A stretch of DNA of 64,000 nt, from IMG/VR virus record IMGVR_UViG_3300044796_000596; one strand, given 5' to 3'. This document shows, piece by piece, positions 1-34,966 of this stretch. The notes below the pieces were generated by a model. It was not told the origin of the DNA. It saw only the letters and a list, made by a program, of their open reading frames with translations, and searched no databases. The first letter of the stretch is position 1; the number at the start of each line of letters is the position of its first letter. Position numbers and translations under genes: made by a program. Source of the DNA: an uncultured virus (IMG/VR IMGVR_UViG_3300044796_000596) (taxonomy: Duplodnaviria; Heunggongvirae; Uroviricota; Caudoviricetes).

Positions 1-653
1 AGGCAGCATCCGTGCGGGCTTCCGTGGCTTGCGTGCGGGCCTCCCGTCGCCGCAGGCCGCGGCGCAAGCTGCTGCACGGAGAGGCGGGTCGCGTCCCGGA
101 TCCAGTGCTCCACGTACACGACGTCCTCCTTGATCACCGCCGTGTAGCTCCGCGGCCAGAACGCAGGATCGTCCGTGTCCACGATCGCCTTCGAGGTCTT
201 CGGAAACGCCTTCCAGTCGTTGCCGGCCCAGACCTTCCCCTCCGCGATCCGGAACGTCGTCGTGACCTCGATGACCGACCCATGGCCCCACTCGGGCGGC
301 CGCACGAGCTCGTAACGGTTGGAAGGCCCCCCGACCTGCTGCACGATGTACGGGCCCTGATCCGCCGGCGTGCCGCCGAGCCCGACCGCAAGCGTCACGG
401 GCAGGAACACGCGGTCGTTCACCTCGATGTCGACGTCGTCAGCGAGGAACGCCCCCGGAAACCGCCCCGTGATCTTGCCGGAGCCGCTCCCGTCGAAGGT
501 CCCCATCGACGTCAGGACCGCGCGGCAGGGCGGCGGCGACCAGCGGGCGATCGCCAGCGCGAGCCCGACCAGGTGGTTCCAGAGCGCCTGGTAGTAGTTC
601 ACCGTGTTGTTGGTCCGGAGGCTTGGCGGCGGAGGCGGGAGCGGGAGCGACAC
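1..653 (-). CDS. Partial gene (runs off window start; absent from ORF track); fibre/spike-like virion protein, paralog of the C-terminal domain of 718..1968
   Basis: Manual translation from GTG at 653 (GAGG RBS): VSLPLPPPPPSLRTNN...ALWNHL...CRAVLTSM...ADDVDIEVNDRVFLP...GPYIV...RPPEW...EGKVWAGNDWKAFP...DDPAFWPR...WIRD, open to the window edge. Aligns motif by motif with the neighbouring gene and resembles the DRVL..NGIY tail-fibre-associated domain. Confidence 0.7.
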   Translation of the reverse strand, partial: MSLPLPPPPPSLRTNNTVNYYQALWNHLVGLALAIARWSPPPCRAVLTSMGTFDGSGSGKITGRFPGAFLADDVDIEVNDRVFLPVTLAVGLGGTPADQGPYIVQQVGGPSNRYELVRPPEWGHGSVIEVTTTFRIAEGKVWAGNDWKAFPKTSKAIVDTDDPAFWPRSYTAVIKEDVVYVEHWIRDATRLSVQQLAPRPAATGGPHASHGSPHGCC

Positions 654-669
654 GAGGACCTCGACGAAG

Positions 670-724
670 TTGATCCGAAATTGATCCGAAATTGATCCGA
701 ACTTGATCAGAAATTGATCAGAAA
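670..724. repeat. 5 x 11-nt tandem repeat (TTGATCCGAAA / TTGATCAGAAA) spanning the stop codon of 718..1968
   Basis: Units at 670, 681, 692, 703, 714. Confidence 0.9.
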
Positions 725-1968
725 TTGACCGCGACGACGGTGAAGGCGCTTCCTGTCGTGCCCGTGATGCGGACGGAGCTGAAGCCAGGCACGCCGGGCA
801 CGACCTTGAGGACGAACGGATCGGCGTTGGTGCGAGCGGTCGCGCGTACGCGCGAGACGTCACGGATCCACCAGAGGGGCGCGGAGGCTGCGCCCTCGAT
901 CACCTCGCCCGAGGAGATGCGCGGGAAGAAGCACGGGTCGTCGCGACCGATGAGAGGAAGACCGTTCCGCCGCGCGATCACGGAGGCGAGCGAGTCGCTC
1001 GGGAAGGCGCGCCATTCGCTTCCACCCCAACGTCTCCCTTCCGTGCCGATCGTGAAGATCGTCTCGTGGGCCACGGCCCCGTCCGTCCACTCCGACGGCC
1101 GCTCGAGGAGCACCCGCTCGTTCGGGCTCCCCTGGTTTGTGATCGCAATGACGACGTAGGGCCCCGCGATCGTCGCGTCGAGCGCCCGGTGGGCTCCCTG
1201 GAGATCGAGCACGCATGCCGGAAGGAAGAGCCGATCCCCGATGCCGAACGGCACGTCATCGGCGACCACGCTCCCATTCACGGAGAGGACGCCGTGCGAC
1301 GACGTGCACGGCGCCATCCGCGTGATTACGGCCCGGCAGGACGGCGCATGGCGATGAAGCTCCTCGACGAGCTTCAGGAGGTAGTGCCAGAGCACCGCCG
1401 CGCGGTTGGGTGCGTTCTGGCGCAAGCTCGCCGGGGGCAACGGCAACGCGCACGCGGGTCGCGCAGGCGGAGGCGGCGGCGGCGGAGGCGGCGGCGGCGG
1501 AGGCGGCGGCGGCGGAGGCGGCGGCGGCGCGTGCTGCGCGTGCGGGCTTTGGTGACCATGGTGACCCGGCGGCGCCTGGTTCTGCGTGCGGCCCCGTCGC
1601 GTCGCGCCCGCCGTTTGGGCTTGGGGAGTACCCGCGCCTGCACCTGCACCCGCGCTCGCACCTGCGCTCGCACCTGCGCTCGCGCCTGCATCCGCACCGG
1701 CCGCGCGGAGTCGCTCTTCCGCGACGGCGAGCCGCTCGTAGAAATGGGTGAGCCATTCGACGGCCTTGGTGGCGTTTGCGTAAACGGCGATCTCCTCGTC
1801 GCCAGCGCCGGTGTCCGGATGCTTGAGCACGCCGGCGCCGATGAGCTTCCGGCGGGCTCTCCGGACGGCCTCGGCGTTTCGCGCCTCCTCGGGCTGCATC
1901 TGGAGGATGACGCGCGCCTGACGTTCGGTGTCGAGAAAAGAGGGCCGGGCGGGTCGCGGCGGCGGCAT
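718..1968 (-). CDS. Putative virion fibre/spike-like protein (N-terminal helical part, Ala/Gly and poly-Pro linker, C-terminal fibre-associated domain)
   Basis: 416-aa ORF; ADDVPFGIGDRLFLP...GPYVV...ERPSEW...EGRRWGGSEWRAFP; paralog directly downstream. Confidence 0.55.
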   Translation of the reverse strand: MPPPRPARPSFLDTERQARVILQMQPEEARNAEAVRRARRKLIGAGVLKHPDTGAGDEEIAVYANATKAVEWLTHFYERLAVAEERLRAAGADAGASAGASAGASAGAGAGAGTPQAQTAGATRRGRTQNQAPPGHHGHQSPHAQHAPPPPPPPPPPPPPPPPPPPPPARPACALPLPPASLRQNAPNRAAVLWHYLLKLVEELHRHAPSCRAVITRMAPCTSSHGVLSVNGSVVADDVPFGIGDRLFLPACVLDLQGAHRALDATIAGPYVVIAITNQGSPNERVLLERPSEWTDGAVAHETIFTIGTEGRRWGGSEWRAFPSDSLASVIARRNGLPLIGRDDPCFFPRISSGEVIEGAASAPLWWIRDVSRVRATARTNADPFVLKVVPGVPGFSSVRITGTTGSAFTVVAVNF

Positions 1969-2077
1969 CGGAGGAGAGGGAGCCTAGCACGGGGGCCCGA
2001 CCGGCCGCGCGATCCTAAATCGATCCTAAATCGATCGAAATCGTCTCCGCGGTGTGTTCGTGATAGGGGAGTTCGCG

Positions 2078-2461
2078 ATGAACCTCGCCTACCGCTCCGG
2101 GGCCATGCCCGACGATCTCGCGATCGACGAGTGCACGATCCGCCATGCGCGCGACACCACGACGGGCGTCACCTGGTGGCTCCTTTGGTTCTACGTCCGT
2201 CGGGACACGGATGGCGAGCCCGAGGTGTTCGCGGTGCCCGTGAATCCTGGGGGAGGCTTCGCCGAAAGCGGCCTGCCCGGGGGACGGACGTGGGGGCTCA
2301 CGCGGAGCCTGCCTGGCGTGTGGCAGGTGTCCCCGTCGATCAACGTGCTCGACGTGGACGACCGGCAGGTCCACATGGGCGTGCAGCCGGGGAAGTCGTC
2401 GCTTTGGCACCAGACGCCGACGCTCCTGAACGTTCCTGCGGGGGAACCGTGGATGGTCTGA
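2078..2461 (+). CDS. Hypothetical protein (weak resemblance to DUF6527-type proteins)
   Basis: ATG after GGGGAG RBS; W.LT...SPSINV...WH motif. Confidence 0.55.
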   Translation: MNLAYRSGAMPDDLAIDECTIRHARDTTTGVTWWLLWFYVRRDTDGEPEVFAVPVNPGGGFAESGLPGGRTWGLTRSLPGVWQVSPSINVLDVDDRQVHMGVQPGKSSLWHQTPTLLNVPAGEPWMV

Positions 2462-3045
2462 GCGCGGTCGGCGCCGTCGCGGTTAGCGCGGTTGGCGCGG
2501 CGAAGGCGGCCGTGGTGTTCGTCCTGAGCGGCTGGCGCGCGGCGTTCTTTGCGCGTGTGCTCGCGACGATGAACGCGCTCTCCCCCTGCGGAGCGGCGGA
2601 CGTCGCATGCGTCGAGCAGCACGAGCACGCGGCCTCGGTCATCGCATCCGTGGCGCTCAAGGATCCGAACCCCGAGGACGCAGCCGCGCGGCTCCTCGGC
2701 GCCGGCGCGCACGAGACGGGGTTCCGGACAAAGCTCCAGAAAAACGGCCCGGCCGTGTCGTGGTTTCAGCTCGAGGTGCCGAACCGCCCGTTCTATCTCG
2801 CGAACGACGTGGACGCGGCGCGTCGCGCGCTCGGGATCGCGCGCATGTGCCGCGGGTCGATGATCGGCTACGCCTCGGGCAACTGCGGATCGAAGGATTG
2901 GCGTGTGCTCGACACCGCGCGGCAACTCCGCGGGTGCATCGAGAGCGCGCGGCGGGGAGGCACATGGAAGTGCAGCAACCTCGTCCCGAAGCCCCCGCCG
3001 AAGCCCAAAAAGGGCAAGGCGAGGAAGGGAAAGCGGACATCGTGA
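2449..3045 (+). CDS. Putative lysozyme/lytic-transglycosylase-fold protein with hydrophobic N-terminus
   Basis: 3' part of ORF 1066..3045; GTG overlapping the previous gene; LLGAGAHETGF...GPAVSWFQL resembles the SLT ES...GxxQ signature. Confidence 0.4.
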   Translation: MDGLSAVGAVAVSAVGAAKAAVVFVLSGWRAAFFARVLATMNALSPCGAADVACVEQHEHAASVIASVALKDPNPEDAAARLLGAGAHETGFRTKLQKNGPAVSWFQLEVPNRPFYLANDVDAARRALGIARMCRGSMIGYASGNCGSKDWRVLDTARQLRGCIESARRGGTWKCSNLVPKPPPKPKKGKARKGKRTS

Positions 3046-3070
3046 CGCTCCGTACGTGTTTCGTTCGTGC

Positions 3071-3100
3071 TTGACCCCTCGCGGTCGTCGCGCGTATGAC
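3071..3100 (+). promoter_or_regulatory. Possible sigma70-type promoter, leaderless to GTG 3107
   Basis: TTGACC-N18-TATGAC-N6-GTG. Confidence 0.35.
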
Positions 3101-3106
3101 CGGCCG

Positions 3107-3883
3107 GTGACAAACGCACCCCTGAACGCAACCGATCGCGCGCGCAGGATGCCCCGAATCTTCGGGGTTTTCCTGGACGTTCTCCTCGTCTGCCTGCAAC
3201 TCGGCATCGTCCTGAGCGCATGTGACGCCGCGCCAGTCCGGCCGAATCTTGCCGGCGCGTCGGCCTCGTCGTCGACGGTGTCCATGCAGACGACCGCTCC
3301 GGACGATCAGGATCCGATGGCCCGGAAGCTTGCGCAGGAGGCGTCTGCACACCGCGCCGCGCCGCTCGTGCCCTCGGCCGTTTCTCCGGAGTCTCCGGAG
3401 GCCGCCCCGAGCGCGTCAGCAAGCACGTCGAGCGCGTCGAGCGCGTCAGCGAGCGCGTCGGCGAGCGCGTCCGTACCCATGTTCGTCGCCGGTCCGTCGT
3501 CCGACGCGCCGCCGCCTGCGCCGCCGTCCCGTCCCGCGTCCGAGGCCGGAAACCTCGTCCTTGCCCTGCTCGAGAGCGAGGACCAGGCGACCACCACGGC
3601 GAGCGCGCTGCGCTGGGAGATCACGCACCGTGGATCCGGTGGATCCGGAGGTGGCGCCTGGACGAATCACGTCCAGGCGGTCCACATCTACGAGAAGATT
3701 TGGGCCGTGCGCGTCGGGCCCGTGACGCAGACCGAGGCGTCGGCCCTCTGCTTCTGGCTCCTCCGACCGAGCACCACGGAGGTTTCGTGGATGGCGAAGG
3801 ATCCGCGCCGGCGGTGCCGCTACACGGACAAGCCGATGCTCACGAGCAAGACGCCGTACACGTTCCTGTTCGACAGCAAGTAA
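3107..3883 (+). CDS. Putative lipoprotein with Ser/Ala/Pro linker and C-terminal SPOR-like domain
   Basis: Hydrophobic stretch ending LSAC (lipobox-like); WAVRVGPVTQTEASALC resembles SPOR; start could also be ATG 3149. Confidence 0.45.
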   Translation: MTNAPLNATDRARRMPRIFGVFLDVLLVCLQLGIVLSACDAAPVRPNLAGASASSSTVSMQTTAPDDQDPMARKLAQEASAHRAAPLVPSAVSPESPEAAPSASASTSSASSASASASASASVPMFVAGPSSDAPPPAPPSRPASEAGNLVLALLESEDQATTTASALRWEITHRGSGGSGGGAWTNHVQAVHIYEKIWAVRVGPVTQTEASALCFWLLRPSTTEVSWMAKDPRRRCRYTDKPMLTSKTPYTFLFDSK

Positions 3884-3924
3884 CGAACACGCCGCGAGCG
3901 TGGGGCGGGGGAAGGGGAAAGAGC

Positions 3925-4698
3925 ATGGGGGAGCGCATGCGCGACACGGATCCCGAAATCGAGATCGACGTCCTCGACGACACGCAGGACTCGGAGCGCG
4001 CGAGGGTCCTGCTCGCGGACGAGCACGAGCACGAGCACGAGCACGAGCGCGAGCGCGAGATCACGCCCTCGCAGCGCGCGGCGCTCGACGCGGAGGGTCG
4101 AAGGATCCGCGAGCGCGACGCGTACGAGGCGGGCTGGAGGGAGACCCTCGCCAAGGTCGACGAGGCCGCGGGGATGCTCACGCCCAAAGAGCGCGTGCGG
4201 CTCGGGCTCGAGAACGCGAAGCGTGGACTCGTCGAAGGTCGAGCGCTTCACGAGCGCCTCACGTTCGAGCTCGACCGCGTCCGGACGGATCTCGCGGATG
4301 GCGAGGCGCAGCTCCGGGTGCTCTCGACGCAGGCGCGGTCGGCGCGCATCCCGCGCGTACGCAACCCGCATCAGGAGAGCGGGCCGAGGCGCCTCCCCGC
4401 GGACGTGCGACAGTCGGTGACGGAGAGGGTCCCCGTGGACGACCGCACGCGCGCGTCGCTCCGGACCATGGGTCTCGCGCCCGTGCGTCATCTGCCCCTC
4501 GTGCCTCAGCGCGGGGCGCCCTCCGCGCCCGAGGTCGCGCCGGAGCCGCCGCCGGAGGTGCCGAGGACGTTCCTCGACCGGATCGTGCACAAGATCCTTT
4601 ACCGCACGCCCGAGCCCTCGCGCGGCGCCAGGCTCACGGGAGCGACGAAAGCGACCGGAGCGACCGGAGCGACCGAAGCGCAGGAGGATCTCGGTTGA
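3925..4698 (+). CDS. Hypothetical coiled-coil protein
   Basis: ATG with purine-rich RBS; HE repeat; coupled to the next gene. Confidence 0.6.
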   Translation: MGERMRDTDPEIEIDVLDDTQDSERARVLLADEHEHEHEHEREREITPSQRAALDAEGRRIRERDAYEAGWRETLAKVDEAAGMLTPKERVRLGLENAKRGLVEGRALHERLTFELDRVRTDLADGEAQLRVLSTQARSARIPRVRNPHQESGPRRLPADVRQSVTERVPVDDRTRASLRTMGLAPVRHLPLVPQRGAPSAPEVAPEPPPEVPRTFLDRIVHKILYRTPEPSRGARLTGATKATGATGATEAQEDLG

Positions 4699-4928
4699 GC
4701 GCGGCGCTCATCGCGGACATCGCCGACTGCGAGGGGACGAGGCACCGCGTGTCCTCGGGAGGCAAGCACCCGTGCCCGATCTGCGAGCGCGTCGTGGCTG
4801 CGTATTTCTGGAGGGGGGCGTTCGTCCTCTCGATGCACCCGCCGCGCGAGCCGACCGATCCGACCGATCCGACCGATCCAGCGCTTGATCCTGATCCAGC
4901 ACCCGAGGATCCTGAGCCCGCTCCGTGA
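4695..4928 (+). CDS. Small Zn-finger-like hypothetical protein
   Basis: TTG overlapping upstream stop, AGGAGG RBS; C...CPIC...H. Confidence 0.45.
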   Translation: MSAALIADIADCEGTRHRVSSGGKHPCPICERVVAAYFWRGAFVLSMHPPREPTDPTDPTDPALDPDPAPEDPEPAP

Positions 4929-4956
4929 TAGGCTGAACGACCGAGGGAAGCGAAAA

Positions 4957-5091
4957 ATGACCACGGAGCCTCGCCCGAGCGGTCTCTCTAGGCTTGAGCG
5001 CGTTGCGTGGTTCGTCGCGCGTCACGATGCCGGCCTCGCCATCCTGATCGTGGTCGCCGTCGCGGCCGTCGCGTTCGTTCTGCTCCGTTGA
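4957..5091 (+). CDS. Small single-TM protein
   Basis: MTTEPR...LAILIVVAVAAVAFVLLR; TGATG coupling to the next gene. Confidence 0.45.
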   Translation: MTTEPRPSGLSRLERVAWFVARHDAGLAILIVVAVAAVAFVLLR

Positions 5092-5609
5092 TGGCGATGG
5101 AGCAGAACGAGCAGGACGAGCGGGACGAGCAGGACGAGCGGGACGACAAGGACTGCCCGCTCGACCCGGCCGAAAGAGAGCGGTGGATCGCGGCCCGCAG
5201 CGCGGCTCGCCTCGCCCGCGACCAGGAGGCGTACGCCGCCGGGATGCGCCGACAGGCGGCAGCGGTCGACGCTCGGGTCGTGCGCACCGGCGAGACGGTC
5301 GAGCAGGCCACGGAGGCGCTCTCGCGTGCCGTGTGCGACCTCCAGAACACGGCGATGCGGAAGCACTACCAGGAGCACGAAAAGTACGATGTTGTGGACG
5401 CTTGGTACGCCGAGGAACTCCGGAAGGTGTTCGGCGAGCCGCCCGCGCCGCCCGCGCCGCCGCCGGTCCAGGCGGGACGGCCGGCCACGCCAAGGCGGCC
5501 GCGCCTCACGCTCCCCGCTTGGCAGCAGGCTTGGCAGGCGGCACTGAGGCGTGGTACGGTCGGTCTTCCACGGGGGCGAACTGGCTTCGACGTGGGAAGG
5601 AAGGTCTGA
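5091..5609 (+). CDS. Hypothetical protein (3' end overlaps tmRNA 5' end)
   Basis: ATG coupled to upstream stop; helical sequence. Confidence 0.55.
   Translation: MAMEQNEQDERDEQDERDDKDCPLDPAERERWIAARSAARLARDQEAYAAGMRRQAAAVDARVVRTGETVEQATEALSRAVCDLQNTAMRKHYQEHEKYDVVDAWYAEELRKVFGEPPAPPAPPPVQAGRPATPRRPRLTLPAWQQAWQAALRRGTVGLPRGRTGFDVGRKV
5531..5560 (+). promoter_or_regulatory. Probable tmRNA promoter
   Basis: TTGGCA-N18-TACGGT with extended TG, 11 nt upstream of the tmRNA 5' end. Confidence 0.4.
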
Positions 5610-5949
5610 TCTGCGTGCTGGCGGCTCCTGCTCCGCCTACCAAGCTGGACGTCCAAATGCGAACGACAACGCAATCGCCGACAAGCTCGTCGTGACCCCG
5701 GTCCCGATGCGCTTCGCCGCCTAAAAAGCGGCACGGCTGTCTGAGGGGGAGATCGTCCTGGTACCCCGAAGGCATCGACCACGAGGGCTGGGTTGCGCGA
5801 GGACGCCCTCGATAGCGTGACCGAGATTCGCGAGGGATAGGTCGCGGCCGAATCCGCGAACCCAGCCGCCGGGGATACGGCGGCTACGCACGTGAATGAG
5901 GGTTGGGCTGGGCGTCTCGCGGACCCGAACTCGATATTCGGCGCCTCCA
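5572..5949 (+). ncRNA. ssrA: tmRNA (transfer-messenger RNA), one-piece
   Basis: 5' GGGGGCGAACTGGCTTCGACG; 3' T-arm CCGAA-CTCGATA-TTCGG then CGCCTCC-A; acceptor stem with G3:U Ala identity pair; helix-2 pairings GTGGGA/TCTCGC, GGTCTGATCT/GGGTTGGGCT, GCGTGC/GCACGT; tag frame 5659-5724 ANDNAIADKLVVTPVPMRFAA*; 378 nt; CCA not encoded. Confidence 0.93.
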
Positions 5950-6006
5950 CTACACGCACACGCACGTTGGCATCATCGAAGAAAACGGCGCAGCGGCCCG
6001 GTGAAT

Positions 6007-6119
6007 CCGGGGAACACGACGCAAAGGGCCATCCGGGCAGCCTCCTTTCGCGAATGGGAGGTCCGGTGGCGCGAACGAGAGGCTCGACGGGAAACCGCCG
6101 GGCCTTTCGTGTTTCACGG
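6007..6119. ncRNA. Candidate structured non-coding RNA, unidentified
   Basis: 6007-6030 pairs with 6100-6119; inner CCATCCGG/CCGGTGG, CCTCC/GGAGG and a CGG-GAAA-CCG tetraloop hairpin; no credible CDS. Confidence 0.3.
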
Positions 6120-6169
6120 CCTCAGTTTCGACGGCTCGCCGGCCAGATGGGTGGGAGCCCGATCGAGTA

Positions 6170-6313
6170 GGGCGCCGGCACGATCGGCGGTGGCGGCGGA
6201 GCGGGCGGGTCCCATGGTCGGAGCGGCCACGTGGGTAGCGTCCACGGTGCGTCCAGCGTCGGGGAACAGCTCGCCCAAAGAGCGACACGCTTGCCGCCGC
6301 AGTTCCGGCACCC
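6170..6313. ncRNA. Candidate long irregular hairpin RNA, unidentified
   Basis: GGGCGCCGG/CCGGCACCC closing stem with nested GGCGGTGGCGGCG/CGCTTGCCGCC and GGGCGGGTCCC/GGGGA..CTCGCCC. Confidence 0.25.
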
Positions 6314-6357
6314 AGGCTTTCCGCAGCCGAGGGAAATCATGCTAAATCTCCGGTAGC

Positions 6358-6413
6358 ATGAACTCGCGTCTGCAAACGCAAGCGTTCGCGGTGGGTCTGC
6401 TTTTCGTCGAGGG
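6358..6413 (+). pseudogene. 5' fragment of a membrane-protein gene interrupted by IS607
   Basis: MNSRLQTQAFAVGLLFVE-GG joins in frame to 8522..8864. Confidence 0.7.
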
Positions 6414-6467
6414 TCACGAACTGGTTCCGCTTGACTACCCACCTATGCCCGGTCATGGTCACCCGAC

Positions 6468-7067
6468 ATGAAACTCGCCGCTTGGGCCAAGGAGCAGGGG
6501 ATCGCCTACAAGACGGCGCATCGCTGGTTCCAGGCGGGGACATTGCCGGTGCGGTCGACGCAGCTACCGACCGGCACGATCCTCGTGCATCCCGAAACGC
6601 CCGCCGCTGCTGCGACGGGCGTGGCGCTCTACGCGCGGGTGTCGTCGGCCGATCAGAAGTCGGACCTCGACCGGCAGACGGCGCGTCTTGTGGAGTACGC
6701 GTCGGCGAACAAGATGCTCGTGATGAGGCACGTGTCGGAAGTCGGCAGTGGTCTGAACGGCCATCGGACGAAGCTGATCGCACTGCTCAAGGACGCGACC
6801 GTGCAGACGATCGTCGTGGAGCATCGCGATCGTCTGGCGCGCTTCGGGGTCGAGTACCTGGAGGCCGCGCTCGCCGCGCAAGGTCGCAAGCTGGTGGTCG
6901 TGGATCCGAAAGAGACGACGGACGACCTCGTGCAGGACATGATCGACGTGCTGACGAGCATGTGCGCGCGGCTTTACGGTCGGCGCTCGGCGAAGAACCG
7001 CGTGAAGAAGGCGGTCGCGGTGATCCAGGCACCGGAGCCGGCGGAGCCGGAGCCGAGGTCCGCGTGA
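6468..7067 (+). CDS. tnpA: IS607 transposase (MerR-like HTH + serine recombinase)
   Basis: MKLAAWAKEQGIAYKTAHRW HTH; YARVSS catalytic motif; EHRDRLARFG; ARLYGRRS. Confidence 0.95.
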   Translation: MKLAAWAKEQGIAYKTAHRWFQAGTLPVRSTQLPTGTILVHPETPAAAATGVALYARVSSADQKSDLDRQTARLVEYASANKMLVMRHVSEVGSGLNGHRTKLIALLKDATVQTIVVEHRDRLARFGVEYLEAALAAQGRKLVVVDPKETTDDLVQDMIDVLTSMCARLYGRRSAKNRVKKAVAVIQAPEPAEPEPRSA

Positions 7068-8500
7068 AGTCAAAGAAGTACAAGGGCCCGGTCCACGCGT
7101 TTCGGTACGAGCTGGATCCGAACGGCGGGCAGAAGGTGCTTTTCGCGAAGGGGTGCGGCATCCGTCGATCGGCGTGGAATTGGGGTCTCGGCAAACGCAT
7201 CGCGCTTCTGCGGACGTATCCGCCCGGCGATCCGCGTCGGTACACGAGCGCAGAAGAGCAGCACAAGGCGTGGAACGCGACCAAGGCGACGGAGCGGCCA
7301 TGGTGCTACGAGGTGTCGAAGTGCGCCGGGCAAGAGGCGCTCCGCGACCTTGAGCGGGCGTTTAAGCGGTACTACGACGGCCGATCCGGCAAGGGCCCGA
7401 CGACGGGCTTCCCGAGGTTCAAGCCCAAGTACCAACGCGAGCGGTTTCGGATCCCGAGAGCAGGAGCGTCGTCGCAGAGCCTCCGCCTTGAGGGTCGATC
7501 GATCGTGCTGCCCATGGTCGGCGCGGTGCGGCTCAAGGAGCAGCCGGACACGGAGTCGAAGCGGACTCGGAACCAGCACTTTCAAGGCCGGATCCTGTCG
7601 GCCACGGTGCGCAAGGTCGCCGATCGCTGGTACGTCTCGGTCAGCGTCGCGCTCGACAAGTCGGTGCCTGCACGGCCAGTCGAGAAGGTCGCTGGCGTGG
7701 ACCTCGGGCTCAAGACGTTCGCGGTGGTCGGCGAGCTCGGTGGTGATGGGGGCGATGCGCTGCCGCCGCTATCGATCGCGGCCCCGAAGCCGCTCAAGGC
7801 GGCGCTCGGCAAGCTCCGTCGCGCGCAGCGGAAGGTCGCGCGACGCGACACGTGGGCGATGTCGGCGAGCAAGAAGAACCCTCGGAAGAAGCGGCGCGAC
7901 GGGACGCAGAACAGGATCAAGGCGGTGCGTGCGGTTGCGCGCCAGCACGCGCGCGTCGCGAACGTGCGCCGCGACTTCCTCCAGAAGACGACGACGAAGA
8001 TCGGGAAGAGCTACGACGCGATCTGCATCGAGGACCTCTCGGTCCGATGGATCCTGAAGAACGAGAGACTCGCGCTCGCCGCGAGTGACCTCGGGCTCTA
8101 CGAATACCGCCGGCAGCTCGACTACAAGCAGCGGCTCCTCGGCTTCCGGCTCATCGTCGCTCCGCGGACCTTTCCGAGCACGCAACGCTGCTCGCGCTGC
8201 GGCGCGATCAAATGCGGCGCGGACAAACTCACGCTCGCGGATCGTACCTACGTCTGCGCGCACTGCGGGTTCGTCATCGATCGCGATGACAACGCCTCGC
8301 TCAATCTCGCGTGGTACGGCGGCGAAGTGATCGCCGGCCGGATTGCGCCGTCCTCCTTGGAGTTGCCAAGGGACGAAAAACTTGCCTGCCTAGAGGAACT
8401 GCCTCTGCCGGACGAGCTTCGGCTCGACCGTGCAAGCCGACCTCCGAGACCCAGGATGCTACCCATGACTGGTCGGACCATCTCCCGGGAGATGTCCTAA
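7064..8500 (+). CDS. tnpB: RNA-guided endonuclease TnpB
   Basis: GTG overlapping tnpA stop; FPRFK; RuvC-I GVDLG, RuvC-II IEDL, Zn finger CSRC..CAHC, RuvC-III DRDDNASLNL all intact. Confidence 0.93.
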   Translation: MKSKKYKGPVHAFRYELDPNGGQKVLFAKGCGIRRSAWNWGLGKRIALLRTYPPGDPRRYTSAEEQHKAWNATKATERPWCYEVSKCAGQEALRDLERAFKRYYDGRSGKGPTTGFPRFKPKYQRERFRIPRAGASSQSLRLEGRSIVLPMVGAVRLKEQPDTESKRTRNQHFQGRILSATVRKVADRWYVSVSVALDKSVPARPVEKVAGVDLGLKTFAVVGELGGDGGDALPPLSIAAPKPLKAALGKLRRAQRKVARRDTWAMSASKKNPRKKRRDGTQNRIKAVRAVARQHARVANVRRDFLQKTTTKIGKSYDAICIEDLSVRWILKNERLALAASDLGLYEYRRQLDYKQRLLGFRLIVAPRTFPSTQRCSRCGAIKCGADKLTLADRTYVCAHCGFVIDRDDNASLNLAWYGGEVIAGRIAPSSLELPRDEKLACLEELPLPDELRLDRASRPPRPRMLPMTGRTISREMS

Positions 8501-8541
8501 ATGTCTACGGAAGCTCAACGGCCTCGTGTGCCTCGGGAGCG
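8340..8541 (+). ncRNA. Predicted TnpB omega/reRNA (scaffold overlaps tnpB 3' end; guide from the flank after 8521); boundaries approximate
   Basis: Position expected from known TnpB biology; hairpin-rich sequence under a non-conserved TnpB C-terminal tail. Confidence 0.5.
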
Positions 8542-8864
8542 TGATCGGCGGCTCCGGCGACAAGTTCCTCATTGTCGTCGCGATCGTCAGCCTCTCGGCC
8601 GGCGCGGCGGGGCTCGCCGATCTCGTCGCCCGCCGGATGGCCGAGCGTCGGAAGCGCGCCATCGCCTCGGGGCCGCTCCGCATCGCGCGCCTCTGCACGA
8701 CCAAGCTCCCCTGCCGCGTATGCGGAAACCCCATCGAAGACGGGGACTTCGTCGCCTGGCGCGAGGGCGAGGACTACGCCCACGTGACCTGTGTGCGCCG
8801 CCCGATCCCACCGAATCAGCCTCCCGAGAAGGTCGACGGGTTGCCAGCGCCCGATCGTCCGTAG
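8522..8864 (+). pseudogene. 3' fragment of the IS607-interrupted membrane protein with C-terminal Zn-finger-like motif
   Basis: LVCLGSVIGG...FLIVVAIVSL TM segment; CRVCGNPI...HVTC. Confidence 0.65.
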
Positions 8865-8878
8865 TTCCACGTGAAACG
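8863..8878. promoter_or_regulatory. parS-like palindrome
   Basis: AGTTCCACGTGAAACG; inner 14 nt match the parS consensus TGTTNCACGTGAAACA; at a gene boundary. Confidence 0.4.
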
Positions 8879-9156
8879 TCCCGAGGTTCAATTCTACGGT
8901 GCGGACCGAAAAAGGTCGCACCACGTCAGGTGACAGGCGACACGCTCGGCGCACGCGCGCGAACGCGCGAACCGTGCGGTGGTGGCACATCGCGTGCCGA
9001 TGGTTAGGGTCGGGCATCGGCTCCTTGTGGAAAAACAGGGGAGAGATCGTGCTGGAAACCGCTAAAAACACGTGCAAACCGAACGGTCAACATGACGACC
9101 AACAGCGGTTTTCGCAGGCTCTACGCGACGGACTTCGCGCAGACGTTGGGCGTGCG

Positions 9157-11130
9157 ATGACCCGTCCCACGGCAGCTTCTAGGAAGCAGCTCGCGCTGGC
9201 GCTTGCAGACGCGCCCCAGGCGGTGTCGAGTAACCTCACCGAGACGTTTCGGCGCCTCTACTACCACTTGTACACGAACAGCAATGCCACGCGGGCGGAG
9301 ACCCTCGTTGAAGACCTGTCGCTGATCCTTCTGCTCAAGCTCGCCTCGGAGCGTGCGAAGGCGGACCACCTGTTGACGGCGTACTGCGAACACGGGGGTT
9401 CTTCGGCTCCGATGCTCAAGGTGCTGCGCCAGGAGTTCCCGAACCTTGTCGCCGCCGATCGACGCTTCAAGATCGGTGATGAGGCGCTCCGGCATGCGTT
9501 GAACGACCTCCGCGCGGTGAACCTGTCGAGCGCGCCGGGGCATGCACTCGGCGAAGCATTCCAAGCCCTGATCGGACCTCGACTCCGTGGAGACAAGGGG
9601 CAGTTTTTCACGCCCCGCTCGCTCGTCGCCTCGATGGTTCAGATCGTGGCCCCAAAGCCGAACGAGTCCGTTCTCGACCCGGCATGCGGCACGGGTGGTT
9701 TCATCATCGAAGCGGCCGTGTTCCAGGCCGCCGGAGGCCATGCTCAGGGCGTTGTCGTCGGCGCCGAGAAGGATCACGACCTGAGTGGCCTTGCTGGGGC
9801 GCTTCTCCAAATCACCGCAGGCGCAAGGGGCCTCGTCCGCCAGGCCAACTCGCTGGACTTGGCCGAGTGGGGGGTCGGTGAAGACGGCGAACCGACGGAG
9901 CGATTCGACGTGATCCTCACGAACCCGCCGTTCGGTGCCAAGATTGGCGTGAAGGACCCCGCGATCCTGCGTCGTTTCGCTGTCGGACATCGGTGGGCGC
10001 AGTCGTTGTTGCCGGGCGGATGGGTGCGCACCAAGTCGTTGCTGCCGAGTCAAGATCCGCAGGTTCTGTTCTTGGAGCTGTGCGTGCGCCTGCTTCGCCC
10101 AGGCGGGCGCCTCGGGATCGTGCTGCCGGAGGGGATGTTCGGGAACAAGGGGGAGGGCTACGTCTGGCAGTGGCTTTCCGCGCAGGGGCGCATCCTCGCG
10201 CTGTTGGATTGCCCGAGGACCACGTTTCAGCCGAGCACCGACACGAAGACGAACGCGCTCTTCTTTGAGCGCGCGAAGCGCGTCTCCGTCGTCGCTCCGA
10301 CCGTGCCTACCGTTGTACGGGTGGGGGTCGCCTTGACCTGCGGGCACGATCGGCGCGGCCGTTCGCAGCTCGCCGATGGTTCGATGCACCCGGACGACTT
10401 CATCGACCTCGGCAAGTCCTACCACGCGAAGGATGGCTCCAAGGCTCTGTGGCGCGACGTGCAGCTCGCGCGCCTGGACTACCTCGTTCCGCGGTACTAC
10501 GCCGAGCGGCAACCGATCACCGCGCAGGAGAAGGATCTGACCCGCGGCGCCACGTGGTCTTCGTTGGCGGACTTGGTGGCATCGAAGATCCTGACGATCC
10601 GCAAGGGCCACGAAGTTGGCTCCGACGCGTACGGGACCGGCGATGTACCGTTCGTCCGCACGTCGGACATCTCCAACTTCGAGATTTCGGCCGACCCCAC
10701 CAAGGCCGTCAGCGCCGACGTCTACGCCAAGTTCTCGAAGCAACAGCGCGTGAAGGCGGGCGACGTGTTGATCGTGGTGGACGGCAGGTACCGGATCGGC
10801 GCGACGGCGATGCTGACGAAGCACAACTCCAAGTGCGTCGTGCAGAGCCACTTCCGCATCATCGGTACGCCCGAGCCCCAGCAGCTTGACCCGTACGAGG
10901 TGCTGTTCGCGCTGAATCTGCCATCGGTGCGGCTGCGCATCCGCGATCTGGTCTTCATCCAGTCTACACTCGGCACGCTCGGGAAGCGGCTCTACGAGTT
11001 GAAGATCCCGATCCTGCACGGTGACGGGCCGTGGCGCAGCCATGTCGACACGTTCCGGCGCCTCTTGCACGAGCGTGACCTTCTACTCGGTGAGCTTGCC
11101 ACACGGGCCGGCCCAGACTTCGAGCTTTAG
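9157..11130 (+). CDS. N6-adenine DNA methyltransferase (HsdM-like) fused to a C-terminal target-recognition domain
   Basis: GQFFTP, VLDPACGTGGF (motif I), ILTNPPFG (motif IV), GRLGIVLPEG; HsdS-like C-terminus (VPFVRTSDI...GDVLIV..G...IG). Confidence 0.9.
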   Translation: MTRPTAASRKQLALALADAPQAVSSNLTETFRRLYYHLYTNSNATRAETLVEDLSLILLLKLASERAKADHLLTAYCEHGGSSAPMLKVLRQEFPNLVAADRRFKIGDEALRHALNDLRAVNLSSAPGHALGEAFQALIGPRLRGDKGQFFTPRSLVASMVQIVAPKPNESVLDPACGTGGFIIEAAVFQAAGGHAQGVVVGAEKDHDLSGLAGALLQITAGARGLVRQANSLDLAEWGVGEDGEPTERFDVILTNPPFGAKIGVKDPAILRRFAVGHRWAQSLLPGGWVRTKSLLPSQDPQVLFLELCVRLLRPGGRLGIVLPEGMFGNKGEGYVWQWLSAQGRILALLDCPRTTFQPSTDTKTNALFFERAKRVSVVAPTVPTVVRVGVALTCGHDRRGRSQLADGSMHPDDFIDLGKSYHAKDGSKALWRDVQLARLDYLVPRYYAERQPITAQEKDLTRGATWSSLADLVASKILTIRKGHEVGSDAYGTGDVPFVRTSDISNFEISADPTKAVSADVYAKFSKQQRVKAGDVLIVVDGRYRIGATAMLTKHNSKCVVQSHFRIIGTPEPQQLDPYEVLFALNLPSVRLRIRDLVFIQSTLGTLGKRLYELKIPILHGDGPWRSHVDTFRRLLHERDLLLGELATRAGPDFEL

Positions 11131-11438
11131 GCTTTCGTTACAGTGTACCCGCTGCGCCCCATGACCTCGACCATCCATGTCTCGAACGTGGTGAGGGACC
11201 GATCCCCCTTCGTTGTGTTGCACAGATGATGAACGAAGGCGACGTTCCCAGGCGCGTGACGCCGAAGGATGCTCGGATCGAGGTGGTCCGAGTCGATCGC
11301 CGCCTTGCTCTGTTCTGCGAGGTCAAACTCATCAAAGTCGAGCGGAAGTTTGCAGATCGGACACCGGCCGACGTCTTTCCTCGGAACGGCAGGCAAGTAG
11401 CGCGCGATTGTCGCTGCGCACGCAGGCGCTCCACGCAT
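11127..11438 (-). CDS. HNH endonuclease, probably an N-terminally truncated restriction endonuclease
   Basis: CPIC...DSDHLDP...GNVAFVHHLCNTTKGDR; convergent with the MTase with overlapping stops; only 103 aa. Confidence 0.65.
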   Translation of the reverse strand: MRGAPACAATIARYLPAVPRKDVGRCPICKLPLDFDEFDLAEQSKAAIDSDHLDPSILRRHAPGNVAFVHHLCNTTKGDRSLTTFETWMVEVMGRSGYTVTKA

Positions 11439-11447
11439 CTCGTACGC

Positions 11448-11647
11448 TTGGGAAGGTCCGCACGTGGCTCCAGAAGGACCACGCGTCGGTGTTCGCAGAG
11501 CAGGCGCACACGCGGCAGGGCACGCCGGAGCGGGCCTACTGGCACCACGGCTACCTCATGGCGCTCACGGATCTCCTCTCCGCGCTCGGGAAGCTCGACG
11601 TGAAGCCGAAGGACGGCGCCGCACCCTACGGCGACGACGAGCGCTGA
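11448..11647 (+). CDS. Small phage-type hypothetical protein, possibly 5'-truncated
   Basis: EQAHTRQGTPERAYWHHGYLMALTDLL; typical codon usage resumes here. Confidence 0.45.
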
Positions 11648-11803
11648 GGCGACGTGGGCCGCCACGAGACAAGCGTAGCGAGGACGACGTGAAACGATCC
11701 CCATCCTGAGAATCCGCGAGAAACGTCCTGAGATTCCTACGGGCGAGATCGATGGGGAGGGGTGCCCTACCTATTTCGGGGTCTGCCTGATACGATCCCG
11801 AGC

Positions 11804-14800
11804 ATGCTCCGAGCCGAAGCCGACGGGCCCGACGCCGCTCCGACCGATCCGACCGATCCGACCGCCGTGCCTCGCTGGGCGTGGGGTGGCAAGCCAAGGG
11901 TCTTCGACGCGCTGGATCTCGACGGGGATGGGAAAGTATCCCGGGACGAGCTCGTGCACGCGATTGGACGGAACGTCCTCGAGGCGAGCCTCACCGACCT
12001 CACTCACCTGAGCCCCGAGGAGCACCTCGACGCCATCAACGCGGGCCGGCGCGAGGGCGCCAAGCTGCGGAGCGCCGTGGAGGGGCTCGGGAACGAGATC
12101 CTCAAGATGGGCGGCGGCAGGCCCCCCGCGTGGTGCACGGGTTTCGCGCCCCTTCTCGGGACGGGGGGAGATCCGACGATCCTCCGCGTGGGCTTCGCGC
12201 CGGGATCGAACCCGCCGCCGTTCCCCGCGCGGTACCGCGGCTTCCCGGTCCTGATGGTGGAGCGTCGGATCGACGGCGCCCTCGGCGAAGCGGGTGCGCC
12301 CGCCGCACCGCATGGGGAGGCGCCGCATGGGGAGGCGCCGCCTGCGGGTCCGCCGCACGCTGGTCCGCCGCCTGCGGGTCCGCCGCCTGCGGGTCCGTCG
12401 CCTGCCAAGACGAACATCGACGCTGTGCGTCCGCTCGCGCAGATGGGGACGGCGCCGACCCACCCGTTCACGCAGGCGCCGGGCGCCCCGTCGCCGAGGC
12501 CCGCGGGTGGCGGCAAGGTCGAGCCCTCGCCGTTCTTGAGCAGCCAGCCCGGAGCCGTGGGACAGAAGCCCGGAGCCCCGTCGCCGAGGCCCGCGGGTGG
12601 CGGCAAGGTCGAACCCTCGCCGTTTCTGAGCAGCCAGCCCGGAGCCGTGGGACAGAAGCCGGGCGCGCCGGGCGCTCCGTCGCCGAGGCCCGCGGGTGGC
12701 GGCAAGGTCGAGCCCTCGCCCGGAGCCCCGTCGCCGAGGCCCGCGGGTGGCGGCAGGGTCGAGCCCTCGCCCGGAGCCCCGTCGCCGAGGCCCGCGGGTG
12801 GCGGCAAGGTCGAACCCTCGCCGTTCCTGAGCAGCCAGCCCGGAGCCGTGGGACAGAAGCCGGGCGCGCCGGGCGCTCCGTCGCCGAGGCCCGCGGGTGG
12901 CGGCAAGGTCGAGCCCTCGCCCGGAGCCCCGTCGCCGAGGCCCGCGGGTGGCGGCAGGGTCGAGCCCTCGCCCGGAGCCCCGTCGCCGAGGCCCGCGGGT
13001 GGCGGCAAGGTCGAGCCCTCGGCACCGGCCCCTCGTCCTCGGCCGGGACAGCCTGCACCGCGCCCGGCCCCGCCGAACTCCCACGTCATTGGTCTCGGAG
13101 GTCGTGCCGGTCGTGTTCGGCAGCCGCCGCCGCCTCGGGAGCATGTCGCGGCTCCGTACGTGGTCGGTCTGCGTCCGGAGGTGCCGCGCGAGCGGGTCCT
13201 CATCGAGGGCGTGCAGCGCGATCCGTATCGCTACCGGACGGACGTCTTGCTCTACCGTCGCAACCCGCGCCGGTACGAGGAGCTCGAACGTCGAGGCTTC
13301 CTCCCCTCGCAGGTGTGGGAGCGGTACCGGACCCGTCCCGAGTACGTCTCGCTCGTCCGGGGCTGGGAGCCGGCGGAAGCAAACGAACTCCTCACGATGT
13401 TCGTGCGCCGACCTCGCGAGGCCCAGCGGCTCTATGGGCGCATGCGCCGCGAGCGCGCACAGCGTCTCGGCGAGCGGCGTCGCTCCCTGCTTCGCGGCCT
13501 TTTCACTCGCTGGACGGGGGCATGGTCGCCCGACTTCGCGCCGTACTTCGACGAGATGACGGCGGCGTACACGGTCGAGCAGAGGGCATCGCTCCGCCGT
13601 GCGATCGAGGCGCAGGACCAGGCGGGCGCCGAGGCGCTCCTCGCGCAGATCGAGGCCGAGACCGCCGCTGCCCAAGACGCGGAGGCGCAGGCCGCGCTTC
13701 AGGGGATGGTGCAGGAATCGACGACGGTGCAGGGCCAGAGCGGCGCGTACGCCGAGCTCGACCAGCCGGATCCTTCCGACCCGGACCCCTTCCCGGCCTT
13801 CGACGACAGCTCGCCTCCCGACGCGCCCCCGGATGCGCCGCCGCCGGATGCGCCGCCGCCGGATGCCGGTCCCCCGGATGCGCCCCCGGATGCGCCCCCG
13901 GATGGCGACGCGGGCGGGATCTACAACGGCCTCTACAACGGCCGCCGCCTGAACCTCGGTCGCGCCTCCAACGGAGCCTCCTCCAACGGAGCCTCCAACG
14001 GCGACGCGGGCTTTCCGTGGCTCGGTGCGGGGCTGCTCGGGCTCTTCGGCTACCTCGTGTACCAGACCTACAACACGGTCGATCGGGCGCGCGCCGCGGG
14101 CCAGCAGTTCCAGGCGGCGGTCGCGAAGGGCCTCACGGACGGGCAGATCGCGGAGTACGGGCCGAAGGTGTTCACGCGTCTCGGCGGCGAGGCGGGCCTT
14201 CAGCGGGTTCTCGCATCGCTCAACGCGTCCAGCGCGCCCAGCGCGTCCAGCGCGCCCGGCGCGTCCAGCGCGCCCAGCGCGTCCAACGCACCCGACGGGC
14301 GCGCGCCAGTGACGCTCACCGCCGAGCAGCAGATGCTCGCCGATGTCCTGAGCGGCAGGGTGCAGGCGGGCGAGCCGGGGAACCAGATCCGCGCGATGTT
14401 CAAGGACATGGGCGGCGTGCAGGGCTCGCGCAACCTCCTCGATGCGCTCTACGGTCGCGTCGCGACGGACGGCCTCACGCCCTTCGCGCAGCGCGTCGCG
14501 CGCGCGCTCAAGGGCAAGGTCGGGTCGGTCGCGCCGGCCCCGAAGGCCCCGGCGAAGCCGGGAGCCCCTGCCGCGAAGGTCGACGCGGGCGATCCCCCGG
14601 GACGGTTCGATCGGCTTACGGGCGTCCCCGCGGGCGCGCCGCGCATCGTTCGAGTCGAGTTCGTGCAGAGGCTCGACCCCTCGGGCAACGGCAACCGCTG
14701 GCGCATCTGGCTCGACAACGACGATGCGCGGACCGTCGATCGCTGGGGCGGCAAGCCGTGCGTCGGCGATTGCGAGCTCGTGGACGATGTGCCGATCACG

Positions 14801-18109: not shown

Positions 18110-18110
18110 C

Positions 18111-20621: not shown

Positions 20622-20654
20622 GATTTTCGAGGATTTCGAGGAGATCGACGAGCC

Positions 20655-22394: not shown

Positions 22395-22403
22395 GAGGAC
22401 GCG

Positions 22404-22808
22404 ATGAAGGGCAACGGAGCGCCGAAAAAGGCATCGAAAAAGGCACCCAAGGCGGGCAAGAAGACGCCGAAGGGTACTCAAGGTACCAACGTAACGAACG
22501 CACCGAAGGTGGCGAACGCACCGAAGGTGGCGAACGCACCGAAGGTGGCGAACGCACCCAACGCACCCAAGAAGACCGGGTGGCAGAGGGCCCGTGCAGA
22601 ACAGCGGGCGGCCGACGAGAAGCAGGCTGACGTGCGCAAGGCCATCCGGGCGAAGGGGGGGCGGCCGCCCTCGCCTCCGAAGCTCTGCTCGAACTGCAAC
22701 GATCCGGGTCACACGCGGTCGACCTGCCCGAACCCAGGACCCGTGCGCACGTTCGACGACTACGATCGGATGGAGCGGACCGGGCGCCTCCCGAGATACG
22801 AGGACTGA
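22404..22808 (+). CDS. Basic Lys-rich protein with CCHC zinc knuckle (putative nucleic-acid-binding/core protein)
   Basis: GAGGA RBS; CSNCNDPGHTRSTC; NAPKVA repeats. Confidence 0.7.
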   Translation: MKGNGAPKKASKKAPKAGKKTPKGTQGTNVTNAPKVANAPKVANAPKVANAPNAPKKTGWQRARAEQRAADEKQADVRKAIRAKGGRPPSPPKLCSNCNDPGHTRSTCPNPGPVRTFDDYDRMERTGRLPRYED

Positions 22809-22838
22809 TCGATGGTCCCGATGGTGTACGATTCGCGC

Positions 22839-24986: not shown

Positions 24987-25080
24987 GGCGGTCCAATTCA
25001 TCAAAATCGCAAAAAATCGCGGATCGCGTCGATCCCGAAAAATCGCCTGATTTGTCCTGAGGATGCTGTACGATCCTCGT

Positions 25081-26886: not shown

Positions 26887-27037
26887 CCCCGGGACAAGGC
26901 GAGCGTCCTCGACATGAAGCGATCCCCACGTCCCTCCACGTCCCTCCCACGTCCATCCCACGTCCATCCCACGGTTCATCCTCGTCCCCATCCTCGTTGA
27001 CGTTGGAGTGAGGTTCCGGGCTATTCTCCGCGGCGCC

Positions 27038-32048: not shown

Positions 32049-32064
32049 CGGTCTGCGCTCCCGG

Positions 32065-32307
32065 CTAACGCCGTTGGCCTTTGGCCCTCCGGGCGCGTAG
32101 CTCCGCCGCACGCTCACGCTGTGCGTTGCGGACGTGCTCGTGGGCGATGGTGACGAACGTGTTGGAGATTGCGCGCAGACGCTTTGCTTCCTCGAGCGCG
32201 TAGGGTGCCGCGACGGGGTGCGTCTCGGCAATGGCGGCGCAGGCGCGCGCCTCGACGCGAAAGAGGTGAGAAAGCTCCTGAAGCATGGCGACGTTCACGG
32301 CTCGCAA
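32065..32307 (-). CDS. Small hypothetical protein
   Basis: Fills the gap between ASCH and helicase genes in the same orientation. Confidence 0.45.
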   Translation of the reverse strand: MRAVNVAMLQELSHLFRVEARACAAIAETHPVAAPYALEEAKRLRAISNTFVTIAHEHVRNAQRERAAELRARRAKGQRR

Positions 32308-34300: not shown

Positions 34301-34303
34301 CGG

Positions 34304-34334: not shown

Positions 34335-34344
34335 GCCCAAGCCC

Positions 34345-34926: not shown

Positions 34927-34966
34927 CCACGTAATTTACCACTTCTTCGGCGCGGAAGGCCCCACC

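Follow-up and report, generated by a model that had tools for sequence, protein, structure and literature searches.

Phage-borne tmRNAs and the present locus

To our knowledge, the role of phage transfer-messenger RNAs (tmRNAs) has never been put to the test, although such genes have been catalogued for twenty years. The gene considered here lies in a stretch of 64,000 nucleotides (nt) from an uncultured virus (IMG/VR record IMGVR_UViG_3300044796_000596), which is called the window below, at its full length of 64 kb. Elsewhere, a tmRNA has been reported in 402 of 18,146 phage genomes (PMC9004378), huge phages carry tmRNA together with SmpB, annotated with ARAGORN (PMC7162821), and the carriers include Bxz1-like mycobacteriophages and Bacillus phage G (PMC4131195). 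For tmRNAs of the type found in the marine phage Melnitz, it has been proposed that they help to keep the hijacked translation machinery going or that they tag proteins of the host (PMC9004378).

The tmRNA gene of the window occupies positions 5572-5949 on the plus strand and is of the one-piece type, running from G1 to the discriminator A, as delimited by the Rfam model RF00023, by ARAGORN at lowered stringency and by end-to-end alignment with cellular ssrA genes. Moderate confidence can be placed in the view that it is a working tmRNA gene, captured by a phage-like mobile element from the ssrA of its host lineage. As judged by alignment, it differs from all 37 of the parsed cellular relatives in exactly two modules, which are an insertion in the tag and an altered T arm.

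Detection of the gene

That 5572-5949 is a real tmRNA gene is virtually certain. RF00023 matches 5572-5952 (+) with 70.3 bits (cut-off 47, E 2.6e-25) over model positions 1-374 of 374, and this is the sole gathering-level match in the window. A sequence-only reading of the same DNA had proposed a full tmRNA architecture with a G3:U pair and had named the Rfam tmRNA model and ARAGORN as checks. The architecture is borne out by the whole-model match, by seven of seven acceptor pairs and by the presence of all modules; the covariance model responds well above its cut-off, and ARAGORN responds only with its -ps option.

At default settings, ARAGORN finds zero tRNAs and zero tmRNAs in the window. 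With -ps, which lowers the stringency, the result is a 'tmRNAp' call for 5572-5950, and the tag given, ANDNAIADKLVVTPVPMRFAA*, is exactly the 21-residue tag that had been read from the sequence and is absent from the 37 parsed relatives. Exchanging the 17-nt T arm in silico for a canonical one is enough for default ARAGORN to detect the gene, so that the default miss is due to the T arm alone. The gene is still filed as a tmRNA despite this mismatch because the whole-model score, the homology to cellular genes and the structure test given below all agree.

The lengthened tag

The tag reading frame (5659-5724, +), seen both in the sequence and by ARAGORN -ps, begins at the alanine resume codon GCG at 5659 and ends with FAA before a UAA stop at 5722-5724, inside the loop of helix 5. 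Alignment places a 33-nt in-frame insertion at 5679-5711 (+), which appears as gaps of 33-34 nt in the pairwise alignments with the five best relatives and changes the tag from ...AIA-L-AA to ...AIA-DKLVVTPVPMRF-AA. The insertion is a multiple of three and free of stops, and the frame still ends in AA-UAA within the helix-5 loop. It also forms an imperfect hairpin, the 51-nt segment 5672-5722 having a folding energy of -16.1 kcal/mol. Among the 37 parsed relatives, the tag has 10 residues in 31 and 11 residues in six, and none has the insertion. By this comparison, the long tag of the window copy is derived relative to those relatives.

The altered T arm

The T arm (5925-5941, +) reads CCGAA / CUCGAUA / UUCGG, and all five of its stem pairs form (C-G, C-G, G-C, A-U, A-U). 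Its geometry is standard, with a 5-bp stem and a 7-nt loop in which U55, C56, G57 and A58 are retained. Two elements reported to be highly conserved in tmRNA (PMC1168896), U54 and the pair G53-C61, are not; position 54 is C and pair 53-61 is A-U. Set against the cellular CCGGG-TTCGATT-CCCGG, the window arm CCGAA-CTCGATA-TTCGG has exchanged G-C for A-U on both strands at pairs 52-62 and 53-61, U for C at position 54 and U for A at position 60, while pairs 49-65, 50-64 and 51-63 are the same as in the commonest cellular stem, CCGGG/CCCGG. The T loops of the 37 relatives are TTCGATT (32), TTCAATT (four) and TTCGACT (one), with a G-C pair at 53-61 in every case; the claim that CTCGATA is a non-canonical loop thus holds, since none of these 37 has it. 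Neither C54 nor a 53-61 pair other than G-C occurs in 60 further cellular tmRNAs that have the same 5' 21-mer (62 of 66 were parsed, and two of those parses were spurious). Relative to the 37 relatives the odd T loop, like the tag, is a derived trait.

Further searches gave no second tmRNA with this arm. CUCGAUA occurs seven times in the part of the PMC11915505 supplement's tmRNA seed alignments that was covered, never in a T loop, which is a weak negative. An exact scan of viral contigs for the T-arm 17-mer returned two loci (L001 and L002), both in unrelated sequence. A compensated A53-U61 / C54 T arm is not described in the portions of the literature searched, which did not extend to the tmRNA database.

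Cellular relatives and origin

Exact matches to the first 21 nt of the gene were found in 65 genome records, mostly labelled Anaeromyxobacteraceae, Myxococcales, 'delta proteobacterium', Gemmatimonadota and Thermodesulfobacteriota, and in these genes the resemblance to the window copy extends no further than the first 49 nt. The search for closer relatives began from one locus (L051, genome G005, in a record labelled 'uncultured delta proteobacterium') with the tag ANDNAVALAA. Homologues over the full length (positions 1-379) are present in five of 201 genomes of the class of G005, in 35 of 301 genomes of the order of G849 and in 55 of 201 genomes of the family of G1135, and the genomes that bear them are 5-16 Mb in size. 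The order of another genome, G858, gave a match in one of 89 genomes; the tmRNA of G858 is on a 1.8-kb contig and may be mis-binned. Searches of 401 genomes from the phylum of G004 and 301 from the phylum of G003 returned only short partial matches, a weak result with two candidates scored per genome. The same holds for all of the large genome searches, in which two to three first-look candidates were scored per genome, as a real tmRNA may hide in high-GC genomes and negatives are weak.

The comparison set consists of 42 cellular loci from one family or order (L103-L107, L109-L135 and L142-L151). ARAGORN finds a tmRNA in all 42, and 37 were parsed; of those left out, two are truncated by the end of a locus or contig, although visibly canonical, and three were mis-called. 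Outside the insertion, the window copy is 82-84% identical to its five best relatives. It is identical to none of the cellular ssrA genes compared, the best of the 42 being 84% identical. In a FastTree phylogeny of 27 family members and seven outgroups (support values not shown), the window copy lies inside the cellular clade and adjoins L109.

The sequence-only reading had also pointed to the lack of an encoded CCA. It is correct that CTA (5950-5952) follows A5949 in the place of CCA, but this is not distinctive; CCA is encoded in 11 of the 37 relatives and absent from 26, three of which have the same CTA. Because 26 of 37 relatives also lack it, the absence of CCA is ordinary in this lineage.

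The source lineage is a family of high-GC, large-genome bacteria, and the 5-16 Mb genomes and the 69% GC of the window suggest that these are probably large-genome myxobacteria. The host of the carrier appears to be a peat or soil bacterium. Several narrower searches were negative. An exact scan of metagenome contigs for a 22-mer of helix 2 (P2) gave one locus (L070), which is unrelated sequence, and a 20-mer from the conserved body was found in no viral contig. The window tmRNA gene had no blastn match in 50,697 phage records. The tags ANDNALALAA, ANDNANAVAA, ANDNAIADKL and ANEPMFAQQLAAA do not appear in the part of the PMC11915505 supplement that was covered, and ANDNALALAA was not found in the literature searched.

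Evidence for maintenance of the structure

A consensus structure was derived from 26 distinct cellular sequences only, and the pairs of the window copy were compared with the cellular majority. Of 85 consensus pairs, 66 are the same, five are changed on one side and still paired, 10 are changed on both sides and still paired, and four are broken. The cellular genes themselves have a median of two broken or gapped pairs (range 0-17), so the four of the window copy are within their range. A test with six sequences and 82 pairs gives the same picture (59 same, 10 one-side changes, 11 both-side changes and two broken), and compensatory changes occur in 34 of the 92 pairs predicted for the family. 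With 15 of 19 changed pairs still paired, the pattern is not that of neutral decay. These counts indicate that the window tmRNA is kept under structural selection and is not decaying.

Other parts of the RNA

The 5' strand of the acceptor stem, GGGGGCG (5572-5578, +), pairs with 5942-5948 at seven of seven positions, including G3:U, and the discriminator is A5949, which together with G3:U70 is a feature of alanine identity. The D-loop analogue AACUGGCUUC (5579-5588, +) is assigned from the Rfam alignment and belongs to the 21-mer that is identical in the 65 cellular ssrA genes; this 21-mer is made up of the acceptor strand, the D-loop analogue and the start of P2. The 5' strand of P2 (5589-5618, +) pairs with 5888-5892 and 5899-5923. 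Its three sections have 8/12, 10/13 and 5/5 standard pairs, or 23 of 30 for this helix, which joins the tRNA-like and mRNA-like parts and whose pairing is backed by family covariation. In the first section, four pairs are non-standard, and two of these form a G.A/A.G tandem (G18.A and A19.G opposite GGA), and such a tandem at the base of helix 2a is a conserved tmRNA feature (PMC1168896).

Pseudoknot PK1 (5620-5649, +) has a first stem of 5620-5624 with 5633-5637 (5/5 pairs) and a second of 5626-5632 with 5643-5649 (6/7 pairs). The helix-5 hairpin, with the stop codon in its loop, is at 5716-5732 (+; 5/5 pairs, Rfam alignment). It is followed by the pseudoknot domain PK2-PK4 (5733-5887, +), which is supported by the Rfam alignment and covariation and is the part of the gene closest to the cellular relatives. 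Upstream, a candidate promoter can be read at 5531-5560 (+), with TTGGCA, an 18-nt spacer and TACGGT preceded by TGG; a scan of 5000-7200 for consensus promoters returned no promoter-like sites.

Related transcripts in metatranscriptomes

Soil and peat metatranscriptomes contain very abundant relatives of the RNA body (5583-5638 and 5746-5903), with summed contig depths that reach thousands, and one contig from an RNA run has six differences in 158 nt over 5746-5903. At their loose ends, the contigs of these relatives encode ANDNAIALAA or ANDNALALAA, which are short tags, and their T arm, ...GGACCCGGGTTCGATT, is canonical. One RNA library, run X2, gave contigs that are 100% identical to the flanks of the gene in the window (4533-5258 and 6219-7500) at a depth of 7-11. 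Runs X3-X24 contain small shares, and of these runs X3, X4 and X11 were aligned.

Genomic context

The GC content of the window is 69% and lies between 65 and 75% throughout. Among 59 open reading frames (ORFs) chosen by codon bias, 38 have no Pfam match at E<=1e-3 and 13 have PHROG matches at E<=1e-5. The latter include an endolysin (29887-30549, E 1.6e-27), a phage helicase family (30447-32231, E 5.4e-108), DNA methyltransferases and several phage-only families with no assigned function. The element appears to belong to a host group, large-genome high-GC soil bacteria, that is poorly matched in the phage collection searched, where nothing is closer than 36% protein identity, seen for the helicase.

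Phage-like genes had been proposed on both sides of the tmRNA. Downstream the endolysin, the helicase and the PHROG-only families support this, but the upstream genes are ORFans. None of the six ORFs upstream of the tmRNA (1-5609) has a Pfam or PHROG match, two have no relatives in IMG/VR, and for one of 416 residues the 301 genomes of the host order gave only weak partial matches (<=45.5 bits), in 33 of them. Nothing usable came from the ESM Atlas for relatives of the upstream ORFs, and three large ORFs have no match in the PDB. The last upstream ORF (5007-5609) enters the tmRNA gene by 38 nt, which may be an over-called end or a real overlap. With the tmRNA masked, positions 1-12000 have nothing in common with the flanks of 16 cellular ssrA loci, a comparison that covered 1.5 kb per side, and in which the cellular flanks were common to one another in just four of 15 cases.

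It had further been stated that no integrase lies nearby. The 67 ORFs of the window indeed include no tyrosine integrase detectable with Pfam, but a serine recombinase of 199 residues had been overlooked (6468-7067; PF00239, E 2.8e-19, with Resolvase over residues 52-181), 0.5 kb downstream of the tmRNA. It is next to a TnpB gene (7094-8500, with OrfB_IS605, Cas12f1-like TNB and helix-turn-helix (HTH) domains). From their domains, the two genes at 6468-8500 are an insertion-sequence pair of the IS607 type, and the recombinase is not a phage integrase.

A 16-mer at 9248-9263, TTCGGCGCCTCTACTA, is a direct repeat of the tmRNA gene's final 16 nt with 15 identical positions, and no second match of this kind was seen in 100 shuffles. 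It was considered as the scar of an attachment site and rejected, with some residual doubt. The repeat is probably due to chance because it is inside the conserved N-terminal coding part of an N6 methyltransferase, whose homologues align from residue 21. A 20-mer of the tmRNA 3' end has no second copy in the window at three mismatches or fewer.

Given the phage-type matches, the ORFan-rich flanks, the IS607 pair and the absence of any flank in common with cellular ssrA loci, the carrier is called a phage-like mobile element. It is very probable that the tmRNA is borne by such an element and is not the cell's own ssrA; the carrier could be a prophage or an island inside a large chromosome.

Some other genes of the window are unusual in their own right. 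A full-length serpin (27008-28318; PF00079, E 2.5e-92), an unusual passenger, stands between five very large ORFs and the lysis region. These giant ORFs (11762-26886) encode proteins of 2115, 852, 579, 724 and 607 residues, with a 134-residue ORF between, and have almost no family matches. In the 2115-residue protein, an EF-hand is present at the N terminus and a transglutaminase core at the C terminus. The products of this run of ORFs may be parts of the virion or tail, but PHROG gave no structural match. The segments 33621-36275 and 51952-52395 contain a PIN-domain protein (phrog_13721), an S24 LexA-like peptidase adjoining an HTH protein, possibly a repressor pair, and a nucleoside diphosphate kinase (E 7.1e-36).

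Possible function and alternative explanations

In the favoured model, a phage-like mobile element would have captured the ssrA of its host lineage. The RNA would be transcribed from its own promoter and processed, receive its CCA from host enzymes, as most of its relatives must, and be charged with alanine through G3:U and A73. Host SmpB could bind through the unchanged 5' part of the tRNA-like domain, and the charged RNA could enter stalled ribosomes and add a 21-residue FAA tag where the host RNA adds a 10-residue LAA tag. The element may in this way supply its own rescue capacity and shift the fate of tagged proteins, and the change in the T arm would remove the m5U54 (5-methyluridine) modification site and alter the elbow. 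That the window tmRNA works in trans-translation with an altered tag seems reasonably likely. The roles suggested in the sequence-only reading, ribosome rescue kept going under host RNase-toxin defence or a re-routing of tagged proteins by way of an altered adaptor-binding segment, are speculative.

Several observations weigh against this model. U54 and G53-C61, which no part of tmRNA exceeds in conservation and which are kept in all 37 relatives and in all 60 of the others, are lost in the window copy, a change that could disturb elbow folding, processing or entry into the ribosome. The Rfam score of 70 bits compares with 128-200 bits for 11 cellular tmRNAs scored in the same way, although the characterized tmRNA of phage Bxz1, at 73.9 bits, is about equal to the window copy. 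Helix P2 is rich in G-U pairs, and Infernal flags two of its pairs as non-standard. The nested minimum free energy fold, which ignores pseudoknots, has a z-score of only -0.94, with 20 of 100 shuffles folding as well. An insertion would, by our own estimate, leave the frame intact by chance about one time in four. Among the contigs of run X2, none is identical over 5572-5952, where only the contig of a relative is found; rare variants are dropped from contigs, and this absence therefore carries no weight on expression. Neither capsid, portal nor terminase was detected in the window, so that 'phage' is not proven, and the earlier statement that no smpB is nearby was confirmed, with no PF01668 match among the 67 ORFs.

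Some of these points would also be explained if the gene were a relic, a captured passenger whose function has been lost recently; the tag insertion and the altered T loop would then be early damage and not adaptive. The pseudogene-grade call by ARAGORN, the low Rfam score relative to cellular tmRNAs, the loss of U54 and G53-C61 and the insertion sequence adjoining the gene are all compatible with this, as is the lack of an identical transcript contig, which has no evidential weight. However, four broken pairs in 85 are no more than some working cellular genes have, and pairing persists at 15 of the 19 changed pairs. Both changes in the T stem are compensated double changes, which would be very rare under neutral decay, and neither the tag frame nor the position of its stop has been disturbed, making a relic fairly unlikely. 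A different possibility is that the RNA is a decoy, a tmRNA look-alike that would bind SmpB, and perhaps alanyl-tRNA synthetase (AlaRS), by way of its unchanged 5' tRNA-like part but perform badly on the ribosome owing to the altered T arm, and so would titrate SmpB and damp host trans-translation during infection. Mycobacteriophage DS6A offers a precedent; Williams and co-workers note that it has little beyond the tRNA-like domain and that tmRNA is strongly inhibited by a similar molecule, perhaps through titration of SmpB (PMC4131195, PMC11915505), and for this reason a decoy role is kept under consideration. It would fit that the changes fall exactly on the conserved T loop and its closing pair and leave the SmpB-side 5' part as it was. 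Yet a decoy would need neither a tag frame nor PK1-PK4 nor helix 5, all of which are retained with compensatory changes, and the frame has survived a 33-nt insertion; a role of this kind is thus judged unlikely.

The gene might instead be a chromosomal ssrA, the cell's own and perhaps only tmRNA, located in or next to an island and given its 3' end by integration of an element at the T arm. The ssrA gene is a frequent integration site of islands (PMC11915505), GC content and codon bias both agree with those of the large-genome host family, a recombinase is 0.5 kb downstream, and a near-copy of the gene's 3' end lies at 9248-9263. Integration would not explain the insertion in the tag, however, which is in the 5' half of the gene, or the joint change of both strands of the T stem. 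The six upstream ORFs without Pfam or PHROG matches and the flanks that differ from those of the 16 cellular loci are not what this origin would predict, the recombinase belongs to the IS607 TnpA type, with TnpB as its partner, and the 16-mer, inside a conserved methyltransferase coding part, is most likely due to chance. A chromosomal origin is accordingly very unlikely. Finally, it is conceivable, if distinctly improbable, that the element re-engineered a captured host tmRNA twice, in the tag for a new protein fate and in the T arm for invisibility to host factors. A 12-for-1 codon swap would then have produced a hairpin-encoded 21-residue FAA tag with a fate unlike that of the host LAA tag, and the T arm would have been re-made with its pairing and its EF-Tu-side stem pairs kept. 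The readers so evaded might be defence nucleases directed at the T loop, the enzymes that make m5U54 or pseudouridine at position 55 (Psi55), or integrases, encoded by rival islands, whose attachment site is the T arm of ssrA. If this were true, phage tmRNAs would join phage tRNAs as 'resistant spare parts', and such variants would be systematically missed by surveys based on ARAGORN.

Returning to the favoured model of a captured and working tmRNA, the value of the locus is in the clean contrast between one mobile copy and 42 cellular relatives, in which structural selection was kept while exactly two modules were remade. This narrows the question of why phages carry tmRNA to two, the role of the tag and the role of the T arm. 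Default ARAGORN is blind to this gene, and the major surveys of phage tmRNA used ARAGORN (PMC7162821, PMC9004378); phage tmRNA counts may therefore be underestimates.

Comparison with known systems

The closest counterparts of the window copy are the cellular ssrA genes of its source lineage (42 loci), which have the same one-piece architecture and align with it from end to end at 82-84% identity. In one of them (L103, from G858), PK1 is letter-for-letter equal to that of the window. Their tags start with ANDNAIA or ANDNALA and end in AA, like the window tag, but they are 10-11 residues long, and these genes also differ in their TTC(G/A)A(T/C)T loops, G53-C61 pair and unrelated flanks.

Two further viral contigs bear related genes. 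On a 153-kb contig (G002), a tmRNA at 653-1021 (-) of the locus L003 has the 5' 21-mer in common with the window copy and encodes no CCA. Its tag, ANEPMFAQQLAAA, compared with the cellular ANEPMALAA, is lengthened from within like that of the window, but its T arm is canonical and it scores 105 bits. The far end of the G002 contig has a run of weak tRNA-like matches. On a 29-kb contig (G001), the gene at 3001-3123 (+) of L069 shares with the window the start of its tag and 22 nt in the 5' strand of P2; it differs in its 10-residue tag, ANDNANAVAA, and is truncated by the contig end after about 123 nt. It lies some 2 kb beyond genes for a phage DNA polymerase, a nucleotide kinase and a thymidylate synthase. 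A tblastx comparison of the window with both contigs gave only short high-scoring segments of 41 bits or less, taken as noise, and no protein-coding similarity.

Among described phages, Melnitz and its relatives resemble the window in that a complete ssrA was acquired from a cellular lineage (PMC9004378). Their tmRNA is a permuted two-piece form, associated with a glutamine riboswitch, in marine myophages, and Table S1 of that paper holds no tag sequences. Mycobacteriophage DS6A (Hudson et al. 2014; Nawrocki et al. 2025) is likewise a phage-borne departure from the standard tmRNA and is the precedent for an inhibitory role, but it consists of the tRNA-like domain only, with no tag frame or pseudoknots, all of which the window copy retains.

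The tmRNA of the cluster C phage Bxz1 (NC_004687, 100059-100495) is also phage-borne, one-piece and without an encoded CCA, at the Rfam score given above. Its tag is long like that of the window, with 25 residues (ATDTDATVTDAEIEAFFAEEAAALV), but does not end in AA. Its T arm is canonical (GGGG-TTCGAGT-CCCC), so that default ARAGORN detects it, whereas that of the window is altered. It is also part of a tRNA cluster (nine tRNAs in a 3.4-kb locus), whereas the window has no tRNA. Three of the four viral tmRNAs considered here (Bxz1, L003 and the window) have tags longer than the 9-11 residues of the cellular tags found. Since Bxz1 already has a 25-residue tag, a long divergent tag in a phage copy is not new. 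Phage-borne tmRNAs and long phage tags are already known, and the window copy is a variant of these and not a new kind.

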